A DNA stretch of 63,862 nt, counting the filler, from Folioceros fuciformis (Eukaryota): the NCBI GenBank assembly GCA_049999805.1. It is 5 parts of 4 records of this genome, joined end to end, with 100 filler letters (N's around TTAATTAATTAA, not from the genome) between each part and the next. Parts side by side here need not be neighbours in the genome. Positions count along the whole stretch, not along the records: positions 45,043 to 61,120 come from JBNGIO010005393.1; 4 more parts are not named here. One strand, given 5' to 3'. The notes under the pieces were generated by a model. The model did no database searches. It saw nothing but the letters and a program-made list of their open reading frames with translations, and was not told the origin of the DNA. Made by a program: the position numbers and the translations under genes. Positions 16,715 to 61,265 of the stretch are shown piece after piece (positions within the stretch are counted from its first letter, which is position 1; each line of letters begins with the position of its first letter).

Positions 16715-16814
16715 NNNNNNNNNNNNNNNNNNNNNNNNNNNNNNNNNNNNNNNNNNNNTTAATTAATTAANNNNNNNNNNNNNNNNNNNNNNNNNNNNNN
16801 NNNNNNNNNNNNNN
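16715..16814. other. Artificial contig linker (N-TTAATTAATTAA-N); also at 33877-33976, 44943-45042 and 61121-61220
   Basis: An identical 12-mer with stops in all six frames sits at the centre of each 100-nt N block. Confidence 0.95.
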
Positions 16815-33876: not shown

Positions 33877-33976
33877 NNNNNNNNNNNNNNNNNNNNNNNN
33901 NNNNNNNNNNNNNNNNNNNNTTAATTAATTAANNNNNNNNNNNNNNNNNNNNNNNNNNNNNNNNNNNNNNNNNNNN

Positions 33977-44676: not shown

Positions 44677-45812
44677 ATGGGGACTCGAAACATACAGGTT
44701 GCGAGGGTCGCATGGGTAGCGTGCCTCCTGCTTCTGTCAGTGCTATCTGCGCAGGCTGGGTTGCAGTCGGTTCATAGCGGAAGCCGGAAGGAGCTGAAGG
44801 AGGAGACCCCAGCACCACCATCTCGCAGACACCGGCCGCATCATGAAAGCGGGAAACCTCGGCGTGGCCACCACACCAAGCATCCGACTCCTCCCTCCCC
44901 CGGGCATCATGAGCCCCCTCACAAGGGCCATAAGCCCAAACANNNNNNNNNNNNNNNNNNNNNNNNNNNNNNNNNNNNNNNNNNNNTTAATTAATTAANN
45001 NNNNNNNNNNNNNNNNNNNNNNNNNNNNNNNNNNNNNNNNNNCAGGCTCGCCTTACGGCTCCCCACCATTGCCAGGCTCGCCTTACGGCCCCCCACCATT
45101 GCCAGGCTCGCCTTACGGCTCACCACCATTGCCAGGCTCGCCTTACGGCTCACCACCATTGCCAGGCTCTCCTTACGGCTCCCCACCATTGCCAGGCTCT
45201 CCTTACGGCTCGCCACCATTGCCAGGCTCGCCTTACGGCTCACCACCGTTGCCAGGCTCTCCTTACGGCTCCCCACCATTGCCAGGCTCTCCTTACGGCT
45301 CCCCACCATTGCCAGGCTCGCCTTACGGCTCCCCACCGTTGCCAGGCTCGCCTTACGGCTCCCCACCGTTGCCAGGCTCTCCTTACGGCTCCCCACCATT
45401 GCCAGGCTCTCCTTACGGCTCCCCACCATTGCCAGGCTCTCCTTACGGCTCCCCCCCATTGCCAGGCTCCCCTTACGGCTCCCCACCGTTGCCAGGCTCG
45501 CCTAACGGCTCCCCGCCATCGCCAGGCTCTGGTCCCGGCCTTTCGCCACGTTCTCACAATGGTCCGGCTCCCTCACCAGGCTCTCTTCCCGTCTCATCCA
45601 CGCCCGGTGGTGAGGGATCACCAGCTCCTCAGCCTTCGTCGGGGGGTGGAGACAAGAACGGGTTGTCACCGGGTGCCAAGGCAGGAATTAGCATTGGTGC
45701 CATTGTCGGTGCTGCTTGCCTAATCGGAGCAGGATGGATGGTGGCCAAAAAGAGAAGGGCGGCCCCTCCTCCTCCTGCGCCTGCTGCTGCTGTCGCCCAC
45801 ACATATGGCTAG
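44677..45812 (+). CDS. Pro/His-rich type-I membrane glycoprotein (HRGP-like); spans a linker gap
   Basis: Signal peptide ..VAWVACLLLLSVLSAQA, a His/Lys/Pro-rich segment, (PGSPYGSPPL)n repeats, then GLSPGAKAGISIGAIVGAACLIGAGWMVAKKRR (TM plus basic stop-transfer). Continuity across the gap is inferred. Confidence 0.75.
45043..45530 (+). repeat. 30-bp coding tandem repeat, ~16 copies
   Basis: CCAGGCTCGCCTTACGGCTCCCCACCATTG units; variation is mostly synonymous. Confidence 0.95.
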
Positions 45813-46890
45813 TCCAAGTCTTCGTTCCGACCTACGCCATCCTTGAAACCATGACCAGTTGTGTTGGACAGATTTGTTGTGTAAACTATTAATTCACGAT
45901 TAATTTGTATAGAATGCTATGCCACGATTTGCCTCGATTGCTGACAACTTTCTTGTGGGTGAGTCAATGTGAGCTTGCTCAACGTCCAGTGTTTGCTGAA
46001 GACCTCATGGTCTAGCTTTCGCTCTTAAAGGAGGGGCTCACTGTTCTCTTTTCCAGTATGTGTTGAGATGGTTTCAAGTTCAGTTCTAAATAGCTCAGCC
46101 ATTTTTCCCACAAGTTTGAGTGCGCCGCCAGAACTCGTTGTGATTCCTTTGCTCACGGTTGTACAAGCATAGACTTGCCCAAATCGACACACAATTCTAA
46201 CCGTTCACATCACTCAATACGTCAGGTAAGTGCGCGTAACTGCGTGTGATGCAACTATTAAGCACGGTGAACGCATTCCGGACGTCCCTTCCTTCCATAC
46301 GAACGGGAGGTGGACACAACCCCTTCGAATTCGACAGCAACACCACGTCCGGACTGTGCGTTAGTTGCCGGCTACGACATCAGCTTGAAAATTCCCAGCA
46401 CTCCGGGAAGGCGGAGCTCGCACATGAACGACGACAGATAGTTGTCCCCTTTAACAAATTCCACACGAGAACACCACCAAAGCCTTGAAGGCCCTTTCCC
46501 GACATTTTCATGTCCCATCCCCACTGTACATAATAAACCTCACAGAAACACCCTTGAGGTGTTTTTAAGTCCGTCCAGCACCGTGGCTAGGAGCAGGTAG
46601 ATCACATTGGGGCACCTTCTCCGTAGCCTTGCCTAGCGACCTGGTAGTAGATAGCTGCCGTGATCTCCAGAATTTCGCGTGCCCTTAGGGCTTCCAACAT
46701 TTCAGGGCCGAATAGCTCTTGCATGTATTCTCGGTTCTCAGGACAGAGACGCACTTGAACACCACAAACCCCTCCATCGTCACTCTACTCTGCGTTCAGA
46801 GGCTACCTACGTTCAACAAACCACACATCCATGCTCCATCCGCCAAACCTTGGGCTTCTCACACGTCGGTCCAGACATTGTTCCAACGTG

Positions 46891-47268
46891 CTAATATTCC
46901 TTCGGAGGCGCCTGAGTTGGTAGCAGCCCAAACCTCTTCTTCAAGGTGATGCGCTGCTTGGAGAACTTGTCATCAGGGGAGAACCGCGCTGCAGCCACCC
47001 AGAATCAAAGTGCAAGCAACCCATTAGCAGCCAGAAATTCCCGCCAGATCCATGGCAATGCAAAACCAACAGAACGAGGACTTTGCATACCAGGATGTGC
47101 CGACTGACTTGGCGTCCCAGCTGGGTCTTCCTTCTGCAGTACAGCACGAGAAGAATTGAAAATAATTCACAATGCGAGTTCTCGGAACCCCAGGTGCAAT
47201 CCAGTGAGACTTACCTTCAGAGTATAAACCTTGTCACCGTTGTCGTTAATATAGAACATGAGATACAT
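46891..47268 (-). CDS. NOP10: H/ACA snoRNP subunit NOP10, 64 aa; exons 47268-47215, 47133-47091, 46988-46891
   Basis: The spliced product is [64 protein letters not shown], with canonical GT-AG introns. Confidence 0.96.
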
Positions 47269-47415
47269 GGTGGGAGGAAAGGTTTTCGGGTTGGGCAGAA
47301 AGAGGGAGATGCCAGGAGGGGTAAGGTAGAGGAGAGCAGAGCCTGGATAGCAAATGTAGAGCGATCCCCAGAAGGGCGACACGAAGAGACCCACGGCCCA
47401 ACACGCAGCCTCCGT

Positions 47416-47593
47416 CTAGGGTTTCTCCCCTCAAGTTGCAATTTGGTCGTCCCTTTCCGCAACGACGGGCGGCGTGAACTGAAGTCTCTTCCGGTCTCTT
47501 GCGGTCTCTTCCGTAAAACTGAAGTCCAAGCAGACTGTCACTTGGAAAGAGTTCCATCTAGACTCCCTCCAAAGCTGCAAAAAAAACCCTAAA
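47416..47593. promoter_or_regulatory. Telo-boxes upstream of NOP10
   Basis: TAGGGTTT at ~47417 and AAACCCTAA at ~47585. Telo-boxes are typical of plant ribosome-biogenesis gene promoters. Confidence 0.55.
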
Positions 47594-47752
47594 ATGCTCT
47601 GCGTTAGGAAGTTACCTTTGTAAGAGGAAGTTACCTCTCTAACACGAAGTTATCTCGTTTGAAGACAAAGTTACCTCTTTGGGAGGTCTCTAACCCATAA
47701 TGACGAACTGCGAGGCATTCTTTACTTTGCTTGAGAGTCGTTCGTTTGTGTG

Positions 47753-48141
47753 TATGGCATACCAAAGGGGACACTCTTTCACTATACTGTTTTTAATGGT
47801 TTCCCATGGGGTATCTAATCTAATATTTTCTTTTGATGCCTATATTTTTCCGATCTTTTTGGTAAACCAACCTAGCTGGATGCCGCACCAAAGGGGACAT
47901 GGCTCAACCGTTACAGCCCGTTATGGGCTGGATGTTGGTAACCTTAGGGCAGAAAGCCCAAACACCCCCCCTAACCATAGTGGGGGTGCGCCCGTGCTTG
48001 GGCAAGATATGCTTGCGAAGTGCAAGCATGTCTGGTTTGGTTTTGGCCTTCAAACTCGCGCACGCGCCAAAGCAGATGCATAACCCATGTGTCTCTAAAA
48101 AAACCTAGAGAGAAGGGGCTTGTCCCCTTTGGTATGCCATA
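47753..48141. mobile_element. MITE with TIR (TA)TGGCATACCAAAGGGGACA
   Basis: Perfect 21-bp inverted termini including TA; non-coding. Confidence 0.8.
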
Positions 48142-48482
48142 TGTGTGCCTGAAAGGGTTGCACTAAAGAACGACCCTCCAAGGGAAAAGTAGTCTTGTAC
48201 ATGGTACGGCATGCCAGAAGGGAAAGAGCATATCACCTTTTTTTTTCACACATTTGTCCCGTTCACTGCCAAGACGGACGTGAAAGCTCAAAGCCAAAGT
48301 GGAAAGTGGACATACCGTCGGTCCAATCCAAAAACCCAAACGGAACATGACACCCTTAGTTTATCACTTTATGTATGGAAAAGAAAAACATGACACTCCA
48401 AGGGTGACGCACCTTGCCAAAATGGTCATTCACTTCCTTGCTCTTTTCCGCAGAAAAATGGTGGCTTTCTTAACGGGAAGGC

Positions 48483-49047
48483 TATGGCATACCAAAGGGG
48501 ACACGCCCCCTCTCTCTAGGATTTTTTACAAACACACCAGTTATGCTATGAGCATCCCCTTTGGGGCGTAGGTCAGTTTGACGGCCAAAATATGAGCATC
48601 CCCTTTGGGGTGTGGGTCAGTTTGACGGCCAAAACTAAACTGGACAGCATGAATTCCATGCACGAGAACCCCTAAGCAAGGGCTCATGCACTCAGCCTCC
48701 TTGCCTCCCCCCTTCCTACCATCTAGCCTAATACCATACCAATGCCCTCCACCTCCAACGGGGTCACAAAGAATATTCTTTGAAGATCCAACCCTAAAAG
48801 AGAATATTCTGTAAAGATCCAACTCTAGGGAACATGAAACCTATATAACAAGTTTTCAAAGTGTGAACATGAAAACGAAGAGTTGTGGTGTTTTTTCTGT
48901 GTACCCTTTGGTGCGGAGTTCAGTTTGGTTGGTTTACCAAAACGGATAGGAAAAATATAGCCATCTAAATGGAATATTCGAGTAGATACCCCATGGGAAA
49001 CCCTTGAAAAATGTATAGTGAGAGTGTGTCCCCTTTGGTATGCCATA
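48483..49047. mobile_element. Second MITE of the same family, opposite orientation
   Basis: Same TIRs. 48899-49047 is the inverted match of 47753-47899, and 48483-48560 matches 48065-48141. Confidence 0.8.
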
Positions 49048-50214
49048 TAAGGCACACCATGTTTATACTCCACAAAGATCCCATTATGTGAATCTATGCA
49101 ATACCAAGCTTCTTTACTCCACATCAACCTATAAATTTGTAGTCCAAAGCACTAATTTCCTATGGTAGCCTACAAAGGCCATTTTATAGCTTTCCAAATA
49201 AATTTGCATAGTGCGTTTCTCCACAATCTCTTTCAGTTGTAGGGCAGCATGCCCAACCCTACAAAGAGGCAACCTTCATTATCCAACCTACTCTTAACCC
49301 TCCCCACACTGCTCTCTATCAAAAGTGCCCCACTCCTGCCTACAAGCCTCTTCCTTGATTCTTCTCATATAAATATGGTTTGAAGAAGGTTGATAGCTCT
49401 CCATGTTCATAAGGTGGACTCTTCTTTAGTCCCCATCCACAATTGGTCTTCAACTCTTAAGCCCCCATGCTTGCAATACAAGAAAGGATTGCATCTTGGA
49501 AAGGATTGTGAAGAGTTGTAGTACATGTTTGGATACTAAGTCGCAACACGTGATACTTCCCTACAACTCGACTAGGCAGGGTTATGTACAATGCGGTTGC
49601 AAAAGGCTTTTGTGGTGGCAAAACCCTGGGCAACTGTTTGTCAAAGGGTTCGACCTTTAGTGTCCACACTTATCCCACTGTCATTGAGACATTGGGTTTC
49701 GTTCCCACGAAGGAGCAATGGGGTTCCTTGCTGCTATGGATGGAAGGTCGGACTCAATCAACTTGATGACGGATTCAAGGGCTCCCCTCCAGCTGCTATC
49801 AGGCATGGGACAGCCCTCGCTGCCCAGGGGTCGAATGCACCCCTCTCGGTGCCTACAAGTTCACTCCAGCCACTACAATGACACTAACCTCTAAGGTCTG
49901 CAACTTCCCTCACTCTCTTCACTCACTCACTCACTCCAGCACCAACAACAACACCACTACCTTCTACACTTCTCTATGTCATGACTCCCCGACTCAGCAA
50001 GAGTCACTAAACTAACCCCAAGGTAGAGAAAGAGGGAAACACACTCCCCTCTCGGATTCCTCCTTCCCACAACCTTACCAAACACCATGAAACATGGCCG
50101 GCATATAGCACTTGTCCAATCAGGAAACAAGAGTGTATAGGTCAAGAGAAAGACACATCCTTTACAATAAGAGCTAGGAGCAAGCCCCTTCACCCTAGCC
50201 ATCACACCTCATGA

Positions 50215-50412
50215 TCCTACCAGATGCTGTACAACTGGCAACATGCTGCTCACGATTCTACCAGATGCTATACAGCTAGCAACACGCTACTTGCGATTCT
50301 ACTAGACATTGTACAGCTAGCAACACGCTGCTTGCGATTCTACCAGACACTGCACAGCCGGCAACACACTGCTGGCAATTCTACTAGACGCTGTATAGCC
50401 GGCAACACGTTG
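50215..50412. repeat. 41-bp tandem repeat, ~5 copies
   Basis: GATTCTACCAGATGCTATACAGCTAGCAACACGCTACTTGC-like units. Confidence 0.85.
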
Positions 50413-50438
50413 TTCGTCTTGAACTAAGCAAGGTCATA

Positions 50439-50773
50439 CCACAAGAGCATGAGATGACAATCTGCCTCCTTTAAGCTCACTCTATCTTATAGGATCCTCT
50501 CTCTCTTACCTCACCTCTCTCTAATTCGACCATTATTATTTTAATAAGACAACTAGTCTAGCCGACTGTCACCAACCACTTATTTAGACTTTCCTAGCAC
50601 GTCCTGCCACAAGAGCAGAACATGACAATCTGCCTCCTTCAAGCTCACTCTATCTTACAAGATCCTCTCTCTCTTACCCCATCTCTCTCTAATTCGACCA
50701 TTATTATTTTAATAAGACAACTAGCCTAGCCGACTATCACCAACCACTTATTTAGACTTTCCTAACACGTCCT
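50439..50773. repeat. ~168-bp direct tandem duplication
   Basis: CCACAAGAGCA..ATGACAATCTGCCTCC...TTAGACTTTCCTA.CACGTCCT occurs twice. Confidence 0.88.
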
Positions 50774-51157
50774 ATCATCAATATTGTTCACATTCTTCAA
50801 CGCTTGCACACAAACATGATCCTCAAAAGCACACACATTCATTGCATAGTGATTGATACAGAAACGCTCATAAAGCATGCAACCGCCATAACCCCTAAAA
50901 CAACCAAACAAACTATGTAACCTAACTAAGTAATAATGTTGGTAATGTATAGTATTTAAATGACATTAAATACTTTAATACTCCCACTCATTACTAACAT
51001 TTACTTTGCACAATATATGTAACTCAACCCTTGCTTAACCAAGGGTTGTCTGAACAGTGAAACCCTAACTTCCATTACGACTTTCTTTGTGAAACCTTGT
51101 GTCGTGCTTAGTCTCTGTGGCTGAGCCAAGGCCAACCGCCACCAGCTAAGCTGAACC

Positions 51158-52090
51158 TTGCCGTGTGCTCCAATCTACTCCAGCACGTCTTTGCGTGACA
51201 ATCCTGTGATCCTGGACGAAGATGAAGTCAGGGAAGACCTGATCCATGTGTGCAACGCCATAAGACCCAAGCGCTTCAGTCGTATCTGCTCCACAACTGC
51301 AAACAATCCGTCTTCTTCAGCTGCTCCAAATCTTGCAGGTGCTTCTGTTTCATAGTCTCCCACTATTGCTGCTGTTGTGGCAACTAATCAGCCTTCCACG
51401 CTCATCTGCAACTGTTACATTCGTGGTGGAGAGAGCTGATGAAGAAGCTGGAGAACGAGCTGCTAAAGCTCAGAAGACCTCAGATTCTCAGAGTCCTCTT
51501 CACCAGGAGAATCAGGCCACCACACCTGCAGCCTCAAACATTGAAGGACCAAGAGTGGAACCTGCTCACCTAATGCGAAGGGAGCTTATACCTTTCTCAA
51601 CGGAGAACTAACTGTTTTCTTCCCTTCTGATTACAGGCCTAGACACTTCAACCTGCCTAAGGGGAGCCACGCTAAGAGTGTACAGATTTTCTCAAATAGT
51701 GACGGTATGAATGACCCTCTAATCTCATATGTGTTTGTGTGTTCAATGACCACGATTCATGATACTTGGCACAGATGGGGAGGAAAGAAGGGTAATTTAG
51801 TTTCATTCTACAGTGAGCAACCAGACTCTAATCTATCTTTCACTATTTATGTGGTTTGAGTTGTTGCTAGTGCTGACTTTATTACTAACACTCTCACTTG
51901 AATGTGCAGGATCCAGCGATATTATGTGTGACGAAGGTGGTGTGTTATACAACTTTGAAGAGGACAGTTAAGTTTCTGAACCCGACAATGACAGAAGGTT
52001 CCTTGCTTGCCTGAGAGGGGATAAGGATGAGAGGACCAAGTTCTTTAGCCAACTCAACAGCTCTAGTGATTCTGAGAGCTCTAGTTGCTA
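51158..52090 (+). pseudogene. Decayed multi-exon gene of unknown product, convergent with the methyltransferase gene
   Basis: Protein-like frames (DNPVILDEDEVREDLIHVCNAIRPKRF) and several GT..AG intron-like segments (acceptors TTACAG ~51636, GTGCAG ~51909). Confidence 0.35.
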
Positions 52091-52579
52091 GACATCTTCA
52101 AACTTTGCTATCACTACACAGCTAATCTTTCTGAGCAGACAATTTGGGGGACTCATGTACCCCAAGAGACTCCTTAAGCTGATAGTGTTTAACTTTTAGA
52201 AGTGCCTTTGTTAATATGTCTGTTGTGTTCATATTAGTCGGTATATACTCCAGTTTGATTTGCCCAGTTACTGGGCAAATCTAAACGGGCGGATTCCACA
52301 AAGCCCGTTTTACACATTTCACATTTGTCATGATCCGTGCTTCTTATCTACTTTTGATCTAACTTGACAAACAATCACGCCACCGGCATGTATCCGAATA
52401 TTTTTGTTGCTGCAACGGTCAATAAAACCAAAATTACTAAAAAAAATAGTTTGAGTCTTCTATGCGAAACTTGATATTCGCAACCCTAAACATATGGTGC
52501 GCCGGTCAACCGGCGCACACCTTTTTCAAAGTACTTCAAGTTAAGATTATACCAATTTCAAATTAAGTCAAGTGTATTC

Positions 52580-55500
52580 TCAAACGAAAATAGGGTTGTC
52601 CTGGTTGGCTTCGGAGTCCACAACTACATCTAAATCATTCAAGCGTTGTACATCTGTATCGCCGAAGTCATTGGCACACACTCGAAGTACCGAGAAGTTG
52701 GAGTCCTCTGTAGTTTGAGGCGGCAGGGTGCAATTCTCATCCCAGACAGTGATGGTGTAAAGATCTTCCGCAGGCCTATTATCAATCTGGTGTATGACCT
52801 CTCCTTTCTTACCCAACATACTGAACACCATCAGTTTGCGCTCCACGCTCCCATCACTGCACACTTCCTTCACCCAAAACTTTGATGGGCCTCGCGTAAA
52901 CGACTCTATAGTAATCTCCTCATTTGCGTCAGGCAAAGACCCTAGCCCGATAATCCGCTGCATGATATATGATGTGCACCTGACATCCACATTGATTGCA
53001 ACCGCATGCCTTCCCTGCTGAATTGCACTTTGGAGAAGAGATCCAGAGCCTACGCATGCATCAACCACCCAGTCCCCCTCACACGAAAACATTTTAATCA
53101 GCATACGCATCAACCCTAATGGTTTTTGGTAAGGGGAGACGACATGTGCATCTGCTTAATGAAAGAGGTGCTTCTTCACCACTGCTCCATGCCTTATAAC
53201 CCTTGGGAGTAGAAATCCATGATTCGCAAATAGTGCAGCCTTCAATTCCTGAGCCTATGTTTGAACTACACTCCCAACAGTGACATACTCAACTATTTCC
53301 ATTGCTCCTGCGTTTGCAGGTATGTTCGTCTTCTCCCATACCAGTGTCTGGATGCTGCCCTTCTTGCACCATGGCCGCAGTGCCTCCCTTGCTTCCGAAA
53401 TCATGTCTACTCCATGCATTAGAATAACCCTAAAAATATTGCTCGAGGTGCATTCACTGAACGCTCGGAGCATTTCATCCAAATCTTCCACCTTCTTCTG
53501 CCTATCATACTCATGACGTTGTAAGCCCCGAGGCAGGTCTGCAAATAGTAGAGTGTAGGGTCGTTTGACAAGAAATGCCTTCATTTCCAGTACATTCCTT
53601 TGAAAAACCTGGTATTTTACCTTTGAGTTACTCGCCAAAACCCGAAAATCCAACAGCCTCGCGTCCATATCCGCTGCCGCTAACTTCTGTTTCTCCTCTT
53701 CCACCCTTTTCCAGTTTTTTGCTGAATAAATGAAATCCTGAATAGGCTTCGGGAGGGACTCCAAGTTCGCTATCTCTGAGGGTTTCTACGACCAAAATGG
53801 TAAACGTTAGTCTGGCTATCGATATAGCTACTTTAGCATGAACATACATGAGTGCGCCGATCGACACGCGCACTTGAGACCGCTGGAGCTCCAGAGTGCC
53901 GGTAGACCAGTGCACTCTTGCCTACAGCTGCCCTAGTGTGCCGGTAGATCGGCGCACTCCTGCTTAAGGAACCGGATCAGTAACACGAGAAATGAACCGA
54001 AACACTTACCACTTTGGCGAAGGCAGTCTGGAATTTTAAGAGATGCCCATCTTCTGTGTGCTTCGGGTACATCGCTTCAGCCTCCTCAAATGGTTCACAC
54101 TTCATTACCAGTCGGAAGGCATGTTGGATTAAGTGTATCTTCTTCTTCTTCCCCACTTCAGTGTCCATGTCCCGCAGTTGAAGCTTCCCCTGGATGACCT
54201 TCTGTGTCATTGCTATCAACATCTTCTCTCCCTTGACACGCGTTGGGACGCCTTGAAAGGCTCTCCATGGCCTGCCTTGCATAGCTCCTAGCACCCTGCT
54301 GCTGTCTTCGGTAACCTGGGTAAAAGAACTTTGCAAGGCAGAATCTCTTGTCTTCCTTTTTGCCTTGGCCCTCTTTGTTGTCCCGGCTGTTACCATGCTC
54401 TTCTGCTCTAGGAGCTCACCCTGTTCCCACATTCTGAAGATCCTATCCACATTGTCCCACAAAACACCTGTGCATCTGGCTACCCGATATGGCAAGGTCT
54501 GCCTGACCACCATCTTCTACACCCAGTCTAAGTCGTGGGGATCTCCACCTTCGTCAGTCATCCCCGGCAACCTGTACAGGTTGAACTTCCACTTGACTGG
54601 TGGCTTCTCTTCTCTTGAATGATTCCCGAGGAAAATGCTGCACCTGCTGCACTGCTCCCCCTTTCCGTCTCTTCTGATTCGCTGCCTGCCCTCTTGTTGC
54701 AGTGCCTGCTGCTTTTCGCCGTTTCGGCTGTGGAGATGAGGCTGTGGAGAAATACAGGAGGAGGAACATTGGGGTCAGCGGTCAGTGTTTTAGCAACAGA
54801 ATCCTCCTAGGAAGCCACAAACAAATCCAAGGCAAAATACTCAACTTGCACACAACGGCCTCACCAGATGTCATTTTCCACTATTTTGCAAGAGACGTTG
54901 ATGCTTTCCTCTTCCACTGCCTTGGTGTGCTGGTACACCGGCGCCCCTTGGTCACCCTCTTCCGCGGTGGAGTGATCTCCACAGGAGACTCCTTAGATGC
55001 ATCACCCTCGCAGGAATTGCGGGGCGTCTCCAGAGCATCATTCAAACTGTCTTCAGCTGAGGAGTATTGAGCCATCTCCTCGGCTTCCTCCTCTTCGCTG
55101 TGTTCTTGAACGTAGGGTGCCTCTTCTTCCGAAATCTCAGGTTGCATACGAAACATGTCTTGATTGTCTTTCACGAATCCTACTGCACGAGTGTTGACGA
55201 CTCCGAATTCTGCTTGCACCGTCTTCCGCTGTCGCTCCCCTGCAAACCACGCCACAAGAGCCCTAAACTTCAGCACCGCATCCCCTACACACCGCAAAAC
55301 TGTTCGACAAAACTGCTCTCCACCCTAATTAGCGAAAAACAAACACAAAAGTTAGGGTTTACGATAATTCTCAGTAATGACATTTTAACCTTTTAAGTTG
55401 ATAAGACCACTTACGTCCTTCAATAACAGACAATCTCTTAGCCGTTTTTCATCCATAGCGGTTCGCATCGGTGAGGTATGGCTTTCGCAACATTCACAAC

Positions 55501-56127
55501 CACTAAACTGTGACTGTCGTAGTCATCCGTAATGTGGCTTGGTGGGTGACAGGTGAGGATGAGATTCAAGTGAGTTTCGTCGTCTTCACTGTCCACATAC
55601 ACACAAAGAATCCATCCTACTCTTCCTGCTTCGTCCTCCACCAAACCTTGAAACTCATTCACCCACAGAGCAACAAGAGGAATCCACGACAAGTTCAAGT
55701 CATCAAGCTCATCTTCAGCTATCAAAAACCATTCCCTATCAGTGTTGAATCTTTTGGCCAGAGTGTCTTCTAACTTCTTCAGTCTCAATCCCTCTACAAA
55801 GTTGTAGGCATTCGGAATGTTGTAATTCTGACTGCCACCGTGATTCACAGTCAACGGAATGTGGTTCAGAGGTCCTTCACTTGCTTTTGAATTGGACGCT
55901 CTCACGCTTCCACCTAAGTTATCCTTCCTTCCTCCGGCGGTCTGGGCAATGGGAGTAGCCTCTTCGCCAGAGGGTGGTGCAGGTCGGTGTCCATCTCTGT
56001 CGGTGTTGTGACCAGACGACGCTTGCGTAGTTGCTTTCCCGACAAACCTTTGCTTTCATACTCGTGGAAGCGCCTTAACGACCCTGTTCACAAGTTGAAG
56101 TTTGTTGCTACGACGACCATATGCCAT
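52580..56127 (-). pseudogene. Large intron-containing gene ending in a beta-class N4-cytosine/N6-adenine DNA methyltransferase domain
   Basis: The last exon 53785-52580 is one frame with two premature stops. It contains motif-IV-like LLFADLPRG (DLPRG at 53525-53539), LVWEKTN, SPYQKPLGLMRMLIKMFSCEGDWVVDACVGSGS (motifs X/I) and GRHAVAINVD. An in-frame phase-0 intron lies at 53786-54009, with another intron at ~55300-55414. Linkage of the 5' exons is less certain. Confidence 0.82.
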
Positions 56128-56176
56128 TGGTGTCCACCCAACAAGGGAAGAGTCGCACAGCACGTAGTCTTTTCTC

Positions 56177-58966
56177 ATGACGGAAGTAGTTGGAGAAGAG
56201 GTGCCCATGCACCGGATTTGTACAAGAAAGAATTCGAAAACGAACTGTTTAGTTGAAACCGAATATCCACTATTACCGACCGCCAATGCATCGCCGGCGT
56301 TGGAGTCGACCTTTAATCGGAAGCTGGCTTCAGAGTCAATGATTGAAACACCCTTAGATCATCGACGATGTCGGCGGAAGAGACCTTCAACAATACCAGA
56401 GGCTAAGTGTTCAGAGCTTCGCATTTCCCTTAATTATAGAAAGATATGCTGTGCGAGACAATGTCTGAGATTGCTTGGCAAACCAGGATTCAGAGAGTTG
56501 CGATATCGTTTTTTGAAGATGAGTAGGACACAACAAGAAACCTTTTTGCAGGCACATTTTGATGTCGAATAGACTGAGAGCGCATGTCCAATCGCGAAGC
56601 CATTCTTACTTGGGTTGGGGAAAATAAGGTGTTGTCAAGACGCTTTCAGAAGAGTGTATTATATTGGTTCAAATAGCTATGAGGGAGCGAAAGAACGTGC
56701 TTGTGGGAACATTGTTTGGTCCAGAGCTATCCGCTCACCGCCTTAGGCTCCAGGGTATGCCGCTGCTGCGTGCATATGGATGGATCAATTGTTTCTCCTA
56801 ATTGCAGAGCGTATGCCAAATGTTGAACTGTACCATTTGCCCGACTCTTACACAAAGGAGGAAATTTTCATGGACTACTAGGGGCAAATGAGCAGAGCAG
56901 GACAATACAACATTTTGTACTCTTACTTATGTCAGCTATGGGCCTTGCACTTCCCGAAAGTGTGCATTCCAAAAATGAACAGATTTTCCTTGTGTACTAC
57001 GTGCGATTATTTGAAGAGAAACATTCGCTCTGAAACAAATAAACAAAAACAAGGTACGAATTTGTTCTTAGGGTTATGTTTTTTAATTCCATGCTGTTTC
57101 TTGCATATGTTTCTAGTCTGGTGCTGGTTTGGGTGACACATGGAGTGCGCCGGTCCCGGCGGGTCTGGACCAGTGCGCTGGTCTACCGGCACACTTGTCC
57201 AGATGCATGAGAAAAGTGCGCCAGTACACCGGCGCACACCCGCAGACCAAAGGTAGTGAACGCCGACTGTTGTTCCCGTTCCTGGCAAAGGGTTTTGAAA
57301 GCGACTTAAAAGTACATCGACAGGGACTGAAGGCAGAGAGGGAGAAGAGTGTCAAGCATCGTGTAAAATGCTATAGCGATCCGGCTCAATATCTCGGGTT
57401 ATCTATAGATGGTATGGATCAGCAAAAAACTTAGATTCCTCATTTTGTGCGGCTTCCAAAAGACTTGGCGGACGTTGACCTTATTGACGTCCATGTCGTG
57501 GGCTGCATGGTGTACAATAGCACAATGTCACTTGAGCTCTTCATAGAGTATGGAAATATACGGAACGACGCAAACTTAACGATTTCTACTATTCAGAGTG
57601 TGATTCACGCGTGCGTTAGACTTCTTCTAGGCGATATGTACTTGCAGCTGGACTACACAGCAAGAGAGAACAAAAATGCTTTGCTGTTTTTATATCTAAA
57701 TATGTTAGTTAGTGAAGAAAGGAATCTTCAAGAAGGTAAAGGTGGGGTTTTTACTGGTGGGCCACACGCACGACTAGGTGGACCATATGTTCTCTTGGTT
57801 TTTTACGGCTCTGGGAAGGAAAGAAGCACTGACTTTACCTGCACTTATCGCTGTTATGCAAAGTTCTTATACACCTACGCCAGAAGTGCATGAAGTGAAG
57901 GAGGTGCCAGACTTTCGGCGATTTGTGTGGCCTGTACCTTACGGAAAAGCCGATTATCAGCTGTTCACCTACTGCACAATATTTCGTTCCAACACCAGTT
58001 CAAGATCACAAGGGAGAGCCGAGGTGAACGGGGCTTTATAACAATGATGCGCGGGAACCAATATTGTACAGACGATTTTTAGTCACCAGATGAGGGTATC
58101 GAGTTTCTGAAGCATATTCTAGACACAGATATCAAACCTGCTCCATTTTTACATCTACAATCCAGGAGCAAAAAACAAAGGACAGTTTCGAACAATGTTG
58201 TTAAATATCATCTGGCACAAATCAGATCAAAATTGGAGATGCGATTACGACAACACTTAGGACCATTCAAGAACTTGTGGTGGGATGGGTTTTAGGCAGA
58301 GCAAGAGGTTATCGTGCATTCTATAAACTCCAATGTAGACAGAGAACTTGATTCTCCTTGGCGGTGGTATAATTGGGAGGCGGCAGAAATATTGAACACA
58401 CCCATTAGTGTACCAGACGAAATGGTTGTTCACAATCCACGCATCCGCGAGATTCCCAGAAGAAACATGTATGTGGGGCATACCGTAGGGAGACGGACCT
58501 CAATGACAACCGCGACAGTTTGAACGGGGATATAACTGAAATAGAAAAAGGGCATATGATTGCAGTCCCTTGCAAGACTGAGGAAGACAATAGGCCGTTT
58601 TGGATTGCCAAAGTCTTAGAGGCAGATATTACATGTGAGACACTATGTGTCAAAGTGGACTGGTGGGTTACCAAATGTTCAGATGCCTTTGAGGGTCGTT
58701 ACCAAGAAGAGATTATTTTACCACATGAAGCTCCGCCAAGAGGGTTACTTGGTGGTCGCAGACCCAAGTCAAGCAGAAGACTTCGGAAGCACATAGATAC
58801 ATTATTCATTGAAGACACATTTATTCTAGCATATGGATTTAACTTGACACGCCAAAAACAGCTACCCTCCCAAACGAGGACTCTCATTCGCAGAAACCTA
58901 TATGTCCTCAATCGTGACCAGGATACACTGCCGCCTGAAAATAATGAAAACTTGTCAGACATTTAG
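56177..58966 (+). pseudogene. DDE-type transposase (Sola/DUF7869-like), decayed, intron ~57054-57288
   Basis: CCARQCL, RFSLCTTC, LSIDGMDQQKT*IPHF, NDANLTISTI, YLQLDYTARENKN and FLLVGHTHD*VDHMFS motifs, with stops and frameshifts. Confidence 0.8.
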
Positions 58967-59527
58967 ATAAAAGTATTAAGGACAAACTGGTATGATAATT
59001 ATTGTATGTAGCGCCAGTCAAGTTTCGTTTTCGACTTGACATACATGTGCCATAAGCGGGAGTGCGCCGGTAGACCGGTGCACTCTTGCTTGTTCCGCGC
59101 CGAGTCAATGGTGTTATGTTTTGCCACCGTTTCTGAAAAATGCAAATAGATATCGATAGGTGATAATTTTGAGGAATAGGGTCACCTGATATGAGGTATC
59201 GCTCAAACACCTATGACTTTACATGGAATCCGATAACACGTGAATTACGTGATACCCGCCATATTACGAGGTTTTGTCATGTATTTGATTGCAATGACAC
59301 CCGCAAATTTGCTAGTACTTAGGAAACAATTCATGATTAAGTTTATACTCAACACTCTTTTAGGCCACATTTTAGGTTCTCCTGACAAGAACATTGGAAA
59401 ATGCGGATATCTATAAATGTTGCGGGGAGCAAGTTTGCTATGTTTCACTTGAACATTATTCAGAAAAGAATTAGAAAAAATGAATCATAAAAACGTTTGA
59501 GTAAAACTGTTTATATACTAAACCCCA

Positions 59528-61120
59528 TGTCGTTTCACATAACCCTAACTTAACTTAATGAATGTTGGCTTTAACTCCAACACTCCCTCTAAAGCAACAT
59601 TAGGTTATCAGACTAAGGGTTTAGGTGATGCGTGCCCGTTGCCATGGAACAGTTGTCAATAGGATCGACTCCAGTCTACGTGCAAGTGTAGGAGAGGAGA
59701 GGAGAGAAGAGAGGGTGGTATTGGTGATCAAAACCATGAAAACAATACACATCACCACTGTCTTACTATGGAGGTCCGAGGTCTCCATTTAAGTAGTACA
59801 TTTAGGGCTACACAACTTCCAGGTTCAATATGGGATAATCTACACTATCCTAAGTTCACTAATAACTAGAACTTGTCTAGTATGAACCCAACTGGGATAA
59901 CTAACACCACATGAGTTTAGCTCATATAAAGCTCGATAACTCAACACTCCCCCTCGAGCTCAACATAGCATCTGTACGCCTAACATAGCTCGGAATTTCT
60001 TCAGCTTCTCTGCTCCCATTGGCTTAGTAAATATATCGGCTATCTGCTCGTCTGTATTGACATACACAAGATCAATAGCTCCAGATAAAATCCTTTCGCG
60101 AAGAAAATGATAATGTATTTCAATGTGTTTTGTCCTGGCATGAAACACTGGGTTTCGCGCCAACTGTATGCTGCTAAGATTGTCACAGTAGATAACAACC
60201 TTGTCGTTGACCTGCAATCCAAAATCTCCGAGTAACTGACAAATCCAAGTCACTTCACACGCTGCCATTGCTGCGCCTCTGTATTCAGCTTCTGTACTAG
60301 ACAAAGCCACTGTAGGCTGCTTCTTGCTACTCCATGTAATTGCTGCACTCCCAAGTGAAAAAGTGAATCCACTTGTAGATCTACGATCAGTAACACTGCC
60401 TGCCCAATCTGCATCTGTGTACCCACACAGGTTTATTTCTAAATCTGCAACATAAAAGAGAGCATGATCCATAGTTGCCTTCACATAGCGCAACGTTCGC
60501 CTTACTGCATCCAAATGTGGCTTTCTTGGCGCCTGCATAAACTGACTTTGCAATCCCACTGTATAGTTCAAATCTGGTCGGGATAGAGTGAGATATATCA
60601 AGCTACCCACAATCTTCCTGTACATTGTTGGATCTTCAAGTGCTTCACCATCATGAGCACTGAGCTTTAGATTTTGATCCAAAGGAATCGAGATTGGCTT
60701 GCACTCAACCATACCATACTTAGTTAGTACATCCGACGCATACTTCCGCTGTGACAGCCAAATGCCTGTGTTGGTTCGTATAATTTCAATGCCCAAGAAG
60801 AACCTCAGTTCACCTAGGTCCGCCATCTTGAACTCTTGTTGTAGAAGTTCCTTGATCTGCTCCACTTGATCCAACTGATTACCTCCAATGATTAGATCAT
60901 CCACATAAATGGTCACAAAGACCAGTCGTTTTGTACTTTTGCACACATACAACGAATGATCCGCATCTGCCATGTTGAATCCGATGTGAATCAGATGCTG
61001 AGCAAGACGCTCATGCCAAGCCCTCGGGGCTTGCTTCAGTCCGTACAACGTTTTTTTCAGCTTGCACACATGATTTGGATGATCCAAATCCTCATAACCT
61101 GGTGGCTGGTCCATGTATAC
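59528..61120 (-). mobile_element. Ty1/Copia 3' half: uninterrupted RT-RNase H frame (61114-59960), PPT, 3' LTR (~59528-59946)
   Basis: LYGLKQAPRAW...IYVDDLII...YTDADWAG...SSTEAEY...ARTKHIEIHYHFLRE...ADIFTKP, then PPT GAGGGGGAG followed by TGTTGAG. The LTR outer end is approximate. Confidence 0.93.
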
Positions 61121-61265
61121 NNNNNNNNNNNNNNNNNNNNNNNNNNNNNNNNNNNNNNNNNNNNTTAATTAATTAANNNNNNNNNNNNNNNNNNNNNNNN
61201 NNNNNNNNNNNNNNNNNNNNTATGTTGCACTACCCAAAGGAGGACACTTATGTCCCCGTCCTCTA

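Follow-up and report, generated by a model that had tools for sequence, protein, structure and literature searches.

The minus strand of a 63,862-nucleotide (nt) stretch of the Folioceros fuciformis genome (GCA_049999805.1), called the window in the following, carries a dead copy of a gene for a circularly permuted (beta-class) N6/N4 amino-methyltransferase, in which an arginine stands at the place of the aromatic residue of catalytic motif IV (DLPRG). This motif is an old and fixed replacement of D[IV]P[YF]G across a gene lineage, not damage to the copy at hand. The region is present in many copies, and a transposase-like gene adjoins it. Overall, it appears probable that a multi-exon gene of a repeated mobile element is present here as a dead copy, that the other gene of this element lies head-to-head with it and encodes a DUF7869 transposase-like protein, and that the arginine is ancestral to this copy. 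The window consists of five parts of four records with 100 filler letters between the parts, and positions 45,043-61,120 of it come from JBNGIO010005393.1. All features of the methyltransferase gene were placed on the minus strand by translation (Table 1).

On the coding strand, DLPRG precedes DACVGSG, the loop that binds S-adenosylmethionine (SAM). Therefore, motif IV comes before motif I, which is the circular permutation of the beta class. The C-terminal half of the gene product (52583-53155) matches the Pfam family PF01555 (N6_N4_Mtase) with E = 8.4e-10 and 39.4 bits against a gathering score of 26.7; the open reading frame (ORF) that bears DLPRG gives no Pfam match alone. In most members of the family, similarity to PF01555 is limited to the SAM-binding half, and the relative P0006 aligns to profile positions 76-217. 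Among solved structures, TTHA0409 and M.RsrI were matched by phmmer over the stretch from YQKP to motif I, with DACVGSG aligned to DPFAGTG of the former and to DFFAGSG of the latter. A profile built from the family matches CcrM (E = 7.1e-9), and also M.BceJIV, over the whole length and in collinear order. It sets motif IV opposite DPPY of CcrM, a short stretch that is weak alone and collinear with the strong match.

Relatives were collected with the DLPRG exon as the query of a full HMMER scan, which covered 1.84 billion representative proteins and gave 17 matches at E <= 0.001; since P0004 is a low-complexity repeat and was left out, 16 were usable. The relatives found are of eukaryotic type, namely proteins of the liverwort Riccia sorocarpa and proteins from run assemblies, and all of the named ones come from a eukaryote. 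R. sorocarpa has at least four annotated paralogues, some of them truncated, on three chromosome-size contigs. A word-indexed search of longer proteins with the DLPRG exon gave no match, the metagenome contigs searched with P0002 and with the window exon contained no relative, and the same is true of the IMG/VR viral contigs searched with the C-terminal half of the window protein. Phage records match P0002 in the SAM-binding part only, over at most 41% of its length and at less than 60% identity, with a best E of 7e-6 among the ten matches listed.

The fold was modelled for P0002, an intact DLPRG relative of 446 residues. The AlphaFold model has a mean predicted local distance difference test score (pLDDT) of 66.9, with most of the core (residues 70-320) above 80 and a disordered tail (residues 334-446) below 50. 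With Foldseek, the best match of this model is CcrM (6pbd_A; E = 7.4e-15, probability 1.00), and further structural matches include M.BceJIV, M.MboIIA, M.RsrI, M1.HpyAVI, rotifer N4CMT (8s9o, E = 1.7e-11), and M.PvuII; with CcrM included, the E values run from 7e-15 to 1e-10. The predicted fold of this intact DLPRG member is that of a methyltransferase. A short motif, VPDS, was seen in the otherwise unconserved acidic C-terminal tails of P0002, P0007, P0015, P0016, and P0019, at or near the end in four of the five, and may be a short interaction motif; its counterpart in the window is VVDSE (within 52583-52640).

The canonical motif IV of beta-class enzymes is (D/S/N)PP(Y/F/W), and to our knowledge its aromatic residue is treated as a constant of amino-methyltransferases. 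The window and five of the 16 usable relatives, intact or partial (P0001, P0002, P0003, P0005, and P0006), have D-L-P-R instead. Ten of the 16 have an aromatic residue at the position of the arginine (DVPYG, DIPYG, DIPFG, and, in P0010, YIPYG), and P0016, the last of the 16, reads DIPST. D[IV]P[YF]G is the motif of the sister group, to which the R. sorocarpa proteins belong. The window copy is at most 33% identical to any relative and about 30% identical to those with DLPRG. In a maximum-likelihood tree of 20 rows, all of which were kept although six are fragments, and with two bacterial-type proteins (DPPY and DPPF) as the outgroup, the aromatic group forms one clade of 12 rows (support 85/87), from which the six DLPRG rows are excluded, each group of them being placed on long, deep branches. 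The DLPRG rows keep Asp, Pro, and Gly of motif IV, as well as WxKTN, YQKP, and DxCxGSG wherever a row reaches them; all five rows of the lineage that extend to that region (the window, P0002, P0005, P0006, and P0018) retain both the SAM loop and YQKP.

A recent mutation of Tyr or Trp in the window copy was considered as the origin of the arginine and was rejected, since DLPRG occurs in five distant relatives. Moreover, because the CGG codon cannot be reached from TAY in one step, a one-step mutation of Tyr is not its source. Decay, which an earlier sequence-only reading of this stretch had offered as one of two explanations of the arginine, is thereby discarded.

The methyltransferase frame of the window is cut by two stops and is therefore listed as two ORFs of 176 and 191 codons. 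When intact P0002 was compared with the window by tblastn, it covered 53773-52913 through both stops (E = 1.4e-41, 31.7% identity over 303 columns). Since relatives align through the interval, the two stops are nonsense mutations; a second intron between them was also considered and was rejected, as relatives align straight across that stretch. Together with the TAG at 54517-54519, the gene has three in-frame stops. Besides the stops, the window copy reads AINVD at the place where the relatives of the DLPRG lineage read AVDVD, with Asn for Asp after strand 2, and this is private damage of the copy. The window copy is a pseudogene, and its value is therefore that of a pointer to the family.

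Upstream of the methyltransferase domain, removal of the 224-nt gap at 53786-54009 joins ...QTAFAKV (54516-54010) in frame to KPSEIANLES... (from 53785); the gap has GT..AG ends, and the frame is kept. The last 66 residues of the upstream exon match residues 22-87 of P0015 (BLASTP, E = 4e-6), and residues 159-396 of P0015 match the methyltransferase exon (E = 8e-18). Because the region 22-87 of P0015 continues into the methyltransferase domain, the upstream exon is part of the methyltransferase gene and encodes its helical linker. The R. sorocarpa proteins P0019 and P0020 gave weak collinear tblastn matches to this exon (E = 0.16 and 0.12, respectively), and the matching part of P0020 was modelled as helices at a pLDDT of 58-76, in an AlphaFold model that is otherwise poor (mean 41.6). 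Splicing of the gap is plausible from its splice consensus, the kept frame, and homology, and would be the simplest way of joining the exons. The gap is present in DNA contigs of the same organism, in which the number of its repeated units varies, and none of these contigs joins 54010 to 53785.

Above the TAG at 54517-54519, the same frame stays open for 85 codons, and it is very likely that the protein begins at some point upstream of 54516. Of the two more distant open stretches that may be 5' exons, 55441-56055 has a weak collinear BLASTP match to residues 138-212 of P0020 (E = 0.19), and the other match of an upstream ORF to R. sorocarpa proteins has E = 3.8. Pfam gave no family for the upstream ORFs of the window or for the N-termini of P0020 and P0019, and a phmmer search of solved structures with the N-terminal region gave a low-complexity match only. 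One contig of a run called X4, guessed to be RNA, lies partly on 55250-55504 with 30 differences, and nothing was drawn from this match. A lead, which is not a result, came from the Atlas for residues 130-370 of P0020: fungal DUF3723 (feature score 0.96) and, weakly, ParB_N (template modelling score 0.27-0.45, under the bar). DUF3723 is a conserved cargo family of the Starship giant transposons, and fusions of ParB with methylases are common in bacteria and phages; sequence tests gave no support for such a fusion here. If the lead holds, a ParB-like module would be common to two eukaryotic mobile elements of very different kinds.

The sequence-only reading is partly borne out by these results. 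It had placed the motifs and their order, a GT..AG gap, and an in-frame join at the positions found here on the minus strand, and had assigned the gene, with arginine at the aromatic position, to the beta class, to which PF01555 and the motif order also point. Its C-terminal extension of about 115 residues compares with about 110 residues past the last residues aligned by tblastn, and the helical region that it joined to the methyltransferase has its match in residues 22-87 of P0015. The gene, which it took to be eukaryotised, belongs to a family with relatives of eukaryotic type (R. sorocarpa and run assemblies), and the Rossmann methyltransferase fold, on the prediction of which the reading had staked itself, is present in the P0002 model with CcrM as its best match. 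The statement that the gene is expressed is unsupported: no RNA run was listed as containing the stretch, and the window copy has three in-frame stops. As a picture of a single gene, the reading was right in its coordinates and motifs and missed the multi-copy element, the transposase-like neighbour, the in-frame stops, and the likely upstream extension.

Table 1. Coordinates, strand, and basis of the features of the methyltransferase locus and its neighbour (positions in the window).
Feature	Position	Strand	Basis or remark
3' exon	52583..53785	-	Beta-class N6/N4 amino-methyltransferase domain and C-terminal tail; single frame with two in-frame stops
Stop codon TGA	52580-52582	-	End of the frame read from 53785
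C-terminal extension of about 110 residues past the conserved domain	52583..52915	-	tblastn matches to relatives stop at 52913-52916
Motif I, DACVGSG (SAM-binding loop)	53042..53062	-	Sequence, Pfam, phmmer, family profile
YQKP motif	53120..53131	-	Counterpart of (H)PTQKP in solved beta-class enzymes; phmmer against TTHA0409 (2zie) and M.RsrI (1eg2); conserved in the family
Premature stop 2, TAA	53156..53158	-	Relatives align over it
Premature stop 1, TAG	53255..53257	-	Relatives align over it
Motif IV, DLPRG	53525..53539	-	GAC CTG CCT CGG GGC; Arg at the Tyr/Phe/Trp position of beta-class enzymes
Putative intron, 224 nt, GTAAGT...GTCGTAG	53786..54009	-	Sequence; contains three palindromic units
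Three palindromic units in the 224-nt gap, 42 nt apart	53850-53874, 53892-53916, 53934-53958	-	Sequence
Exon, helical region preceding the methyltransferase domain	54010..54516	-	BLASTP against P0015
In-frame TAG	54517..54519	-	Between the helical exon and the open stretch 54520-54774 in the same frame
Two upstream open stretches, possible 5' exons of the methyltransferase gene (lead)	54884-55324, 55441-56055	-	One weak BLASTP match
Head-to-head neighbour, decayed transposase-like gene	56168..58966	+	In-frame stops and frame changes
Pieces of Pfam PF25273 (DUF7869)	57435-57890 (E = 3.9e-13), 57778-58038 (E = 2.8e-8)	+	Pfam
22-nt palindrome (GTGCGCCGGTnnACCGGCGCAC-like), span of all copies in the window	52497..59083	.	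Starts at 52497, 53852, 53936, 54925, 57173, 57216, 59062

The multi-copy state was seen in Logan contigs of two DNA runs, X1 and X2, of the same organism and from one sample, which were aligned to 52300-56200 with a cut-off of at least 80% identity. Contigs numbered 1024 in X1 and 1005 in X2 across all identity bands; in X1, they divide into 109 at 99% identity or more, 217 at 95-99%, 335 at 90-95%, and 363 below 90%. At one position, a listed difference occurs in as many as 21 contigs; among the changes, the transitions C>T and G>A are the most frequent. Within the window, the methyltransferase gene occurs once.

In the decayed gene next to it, two ORFs match DUF7869, and no other of the 50 ORFs that were scanned from 46.5 to 63.8 kilobases (kb) gave a Pfam family. 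The nearest Atlas clusters of this gene are DUF7869 proteins of animals (molluscs, arthropods, and rotifers). Judged from its motifs of the DGMDQ, ENKN, and GHTH type and from its spread, the DUF7869 protein would be a DDE-type transposase. Past the DUF7869 pieces there is a 185-codon ORF (58409-58966, plus strand) that has no Pfam family, includes a PFWIAKV...VDWW stretch, and possibly encodes the C-terminal domain of the transposase-like protein.

The two genes lie head-to-head and have a 22-nt palindrome in common, and their linkage is observed in this one copy. With up to three mismatches allowed in the whole 63.9 kb, the palindrome has seven matches against 0.00 expected from 100 shuffles, and all of them lie between 52.5 and 59.1 kb. 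It lies in both putative introns, once in the open stretch 54884-55324 (at 54925), and within about 100 nt past both stop codons. In each of the putative introns of the two divergent genes (53850-53958 and 57144-57238), this palindrome forms an array of roughly three copies of 22-24 nt, spaced 42-43 nt apart, and the two gaps could have a common origin in a single small mobile or regulatory module, like an introner. At the outer ends, the palindrome at 52497-52518 is 62 nt past the methyltransferase stop, and that at 59062-59083 is 96 nt past the last transposase-like ORF; a shared 10-mer (CGAAACTTGA or its complement) was found near both of them. These palindromes near both gene ends could serve the element as 3'-end or subterminal signals.

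Several points weigh against the explanation of the locus as a member of a repeated two-gene element with an old arginine. The evidence for many copies is limited to 52300-56200, and the transposase-like gene is outside that span; X1 and X2 come from a single sample, and they are possibly the same data from which the window was assembled. Between 51.8-52.65 kb and 58.9-60.1 kb, no convincing terminal inverted repeats or target-site duplication were found, the internal palindrome aside, and for this reason both the boundaries of the element and the connection of its two genes are inferred. The six DLPRG rows are not resolved as a single clade in the tree, and their mutual order is unsettled. 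The Rossmann-like fold was modelled on the relative P0002, not on the broken protein of the window, in which Asn replaces the Asp of the lineage after strand 2. Finally, the aromatic residue matters in solved beta-class enzymes, and the arginine may mean that catalysis was lost.

This last point leads to an alternative that we regard as possible, though clearly the less probable one, in which the DLPRG lineage is a non-catalytic factor of the element that has a methyltransferase fold and binds DNA, RNA, or SAM. No member of the lineage has kept the aromatic residue of motif IV, and in Rodriguez et al. (2022, PMC8885841), the change of SPPY to APPA abolished the activity of N4CMT. There are also precedents for a dead methyltransferase fold that is retained: sections of Iyer et al. 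(2016, PMC4738411) describe METTL14, which stands beside METTL3, as a paralogue with disrupted active-site motifs that is kept for binding (section 8), and the methyltransferase domain of the DIRS1 retrotransposon as probably inactive with active-site substitutions. METTL3/METTL14 and MTA1/MTA9 of the MT-A70 clade do have the same permuted fold and come lower in the Foldseek list of P0002. However, Asp, Pro, Gly, DxCxGSG, WxKTN, and YQKP are kept at about 30% identity, which would be unusual if catalysis and cofactor binding had both been abandoned. In contrast to degeneration of the METTL14 type, the SAM loop is intact, and no sign of a paired active subunit was seen: the window gave one copy of the methyltransferase gene and no active partner paralogue beside it.

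The 224-nt gap may be read in another way, as an insertion of a palindrome array, similar to a miniature inverted-repeat transposable element, which split the frame and hit the neighbouring gene likewise. The same palindromic unit is arrayed in both gaps at the 42-43 nt spacing, the number of units varies among DNA contigs, some joints of which skip 80 nt (53854 to 53935) or 26 nt (53916 to 53943), and the minimum of the summed depth lies over 53872-54002. On the other hand, the gap opens with the consensus donor GTAAGT, closes with the acceptor TAG, and leaves the frame exactly intact when it is removed. P0001 and P0002 start only 13-16 residues before the position of the exon start, and their leading residues are mutually unrelated, which is consistent with distant relatives being interrupted at this position too. 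An inserted element can also act as an intron, so that the two accounts are compatible; as a replacement for the intron, the insertion seems unlikely to us.

It is very improbable that the locus is an ordinary host gene, that is a bacterial methyltransferase which was acquired horizontally, became expressed and spliced, and is slightly damaged here. Such a gene would account for the GT..AG gap with its kept frame and for named relatives that are all eukaryotic, and liverworts have indeed recruited a bacterial-type N4-methylcytosine (4mC) methyltransferase, MpDN4MT1, according to the description in the preprint of Walker et al. (2021). Nevertheless, the three in-frame stops, the approximately 1000 diverged DNA contigs per run, the transposase-like neighbour, and the element-specific palindromes all speak against a host gene, and MpDN4MT1 is described there with TSPPY, not D[ILV]P[YR]G. 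An integrated fragment of a large DNA virus or of something virus-like, with a methyltransferase on it, is harder still to credit. Algal viruses and phages are rich in N6 and N4 methyltransferases, and palindromic units follow the stop codons of both genes; however, neither a capsid nor a packaging ATPase, a polymerase, or any further viral family was found in the 50 ORFs between 46.5 and 63.8 kb, the IMG/VR contigs gave no relative with the C-terminal half of the window protein, and the phage matches to P0002 are distant and confined to the SAM-binding part.

If the locus is a copy of a repeated element, as appears probable, a scheme for the intact element can be potentially described as follows. 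The element would most likely be a DNA transposon that carries both the methyltransferase gene and the DUF7869 transposase-like gene. Its intact methyltransferase protein would have an N-terminal region of uncertain fold, the helical linker, a permuted SAM-dependent amino-methyltransferase domain, and a short tail. Our best guess from the conserved residues is that intact DLPRG members still methylate an exocyclic amine of DNA, possibly of RNA; because Asp, Pro, the SAM loop, WxKTN, and YQKP are kept, they may bind SAM and a flipped base, with the base pocket remodelled so that the guanidinium stands in for the aromatic stacking residue. The union of the two genes in one element, like any role of the methyltransferase in transposition or in escape from silencing by the host, is inferred. 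A bolder proposal is that the intact DLPRG proteins are active enzymes in which the arginine, in place of the aromatic base-stacking residue, goes with a new target (another base or atom, a modified base, or RNA), and that a family of DNA transposons of bryophyte-type plants uses them to mark its own or the host's nucleic acid and thereby steers transposition or silencing; we hold this to be doubtful. In any case, a lineage in which the arginine persists at about 30% identity while the SAM site stays intact amounts to an experiment made by nature: either guanidinium stacking suffices or the methyltransferase fold was turned to a non-catalytic use.

Known systems resemble the family in part. 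The bacterial and phage PF01555 enzymes of the beta class (CcrM, M.RsrI, M.MboIIA, M1.HpyAVI, and M.PvuII) have the same motif order, SAM loop, (H)PTQKP-like counterpart of YQKP, WxK, and predicted fold. They differ from the gene described here in motif IV, which is (D/S/N)PP(Y/F/W) rather than D-L-P-R-G; the present gene, unlike them, is interrupted by gaps of eukaryotic type, bears a long extension at the N-terminus, and lies on a repeated element in a plant-like genome. Rotifer N4CMT and MpDN4MT1a/b of Marchantia are, like the family, PF01555 enzymes of the beta class, and they work in eukaryotic nuclei; MpDN4MT1 comes from a liverwort, as do the named relatives. Rodriguez et al. (2022, PMC8885841) describe N4CMT as a pair of alleles that have a chromodomain, and the preprint of Walker et al. 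(2021) presents MpDN4MT1 as a tandem pair expressed in sperm. As far as these sources describe them, both are host genes with (T)SPPY, the motif of eukaryotic 4mC methyltransferases, whereas the window has DLPRG and its family reads D[ILV]P[YFR]G, occurs in many copies, and lies beside a transposase-like gene; MpDN4MT1 was compared by description.

Mobile elements that keep a gene with the methyltransferase fold are also known from DIRS1 and from the Mariner elements of giant viruses, the latter noted as virus-borne Mariners with methyltransferase genes in a passage of Bao and Jurka (2013). The methyltransferases of these elements are PCIF1-like, Methyltransf_26, or C5 enzymes in other types of element, unlike the permuted PF01555 protein beside DUF7869 in a genome of land-plant type. 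C5 methyltransferases have reportedly been seen in retrotransposons as well. The open full-text literature gave no description of the present methyltransferase family, the DLPRG motif, or DUF7869. Eukaryotic transposons with a gene for the modification of nucleic acids are few, and the family would be a further case. According to Iyer et al. (2016, PMC4738411), N6-adenine methyltransferases are scarce in land plants. In genomes of liverwort type, an element-borne PF01555 family would be a possible added source of N6-methyladenine or 4mC signals, besides MpDN4MT1, which is specific to sperm.

The rest of the window holds remains of Copia, Harbinger-type, and other transposons, as recognised by eye in ORF translations, and the neighbouring Copia fragments were of no help in placing the ends of the insertion. 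Just outside the element, 50213-50768 contains tandem repeats with four 41-nt units and two 168-nt units that are 92% alike. Runs of N, mostly pairs of 44 around 12 bases, at 2825-2924, 16715-16814, 33877-33976, 44943-45042, and 61121-61220 interrupt several transposon ORFs and were read as masked or unresolved sequence. A long proline-rich ORF on the plus strand (44991-45812) repeats GSPYGSPPLP more than 15 times, continues with a hydrophobic stretch and a basic KKRR cluster, and looks extensin-like or wall-associated.

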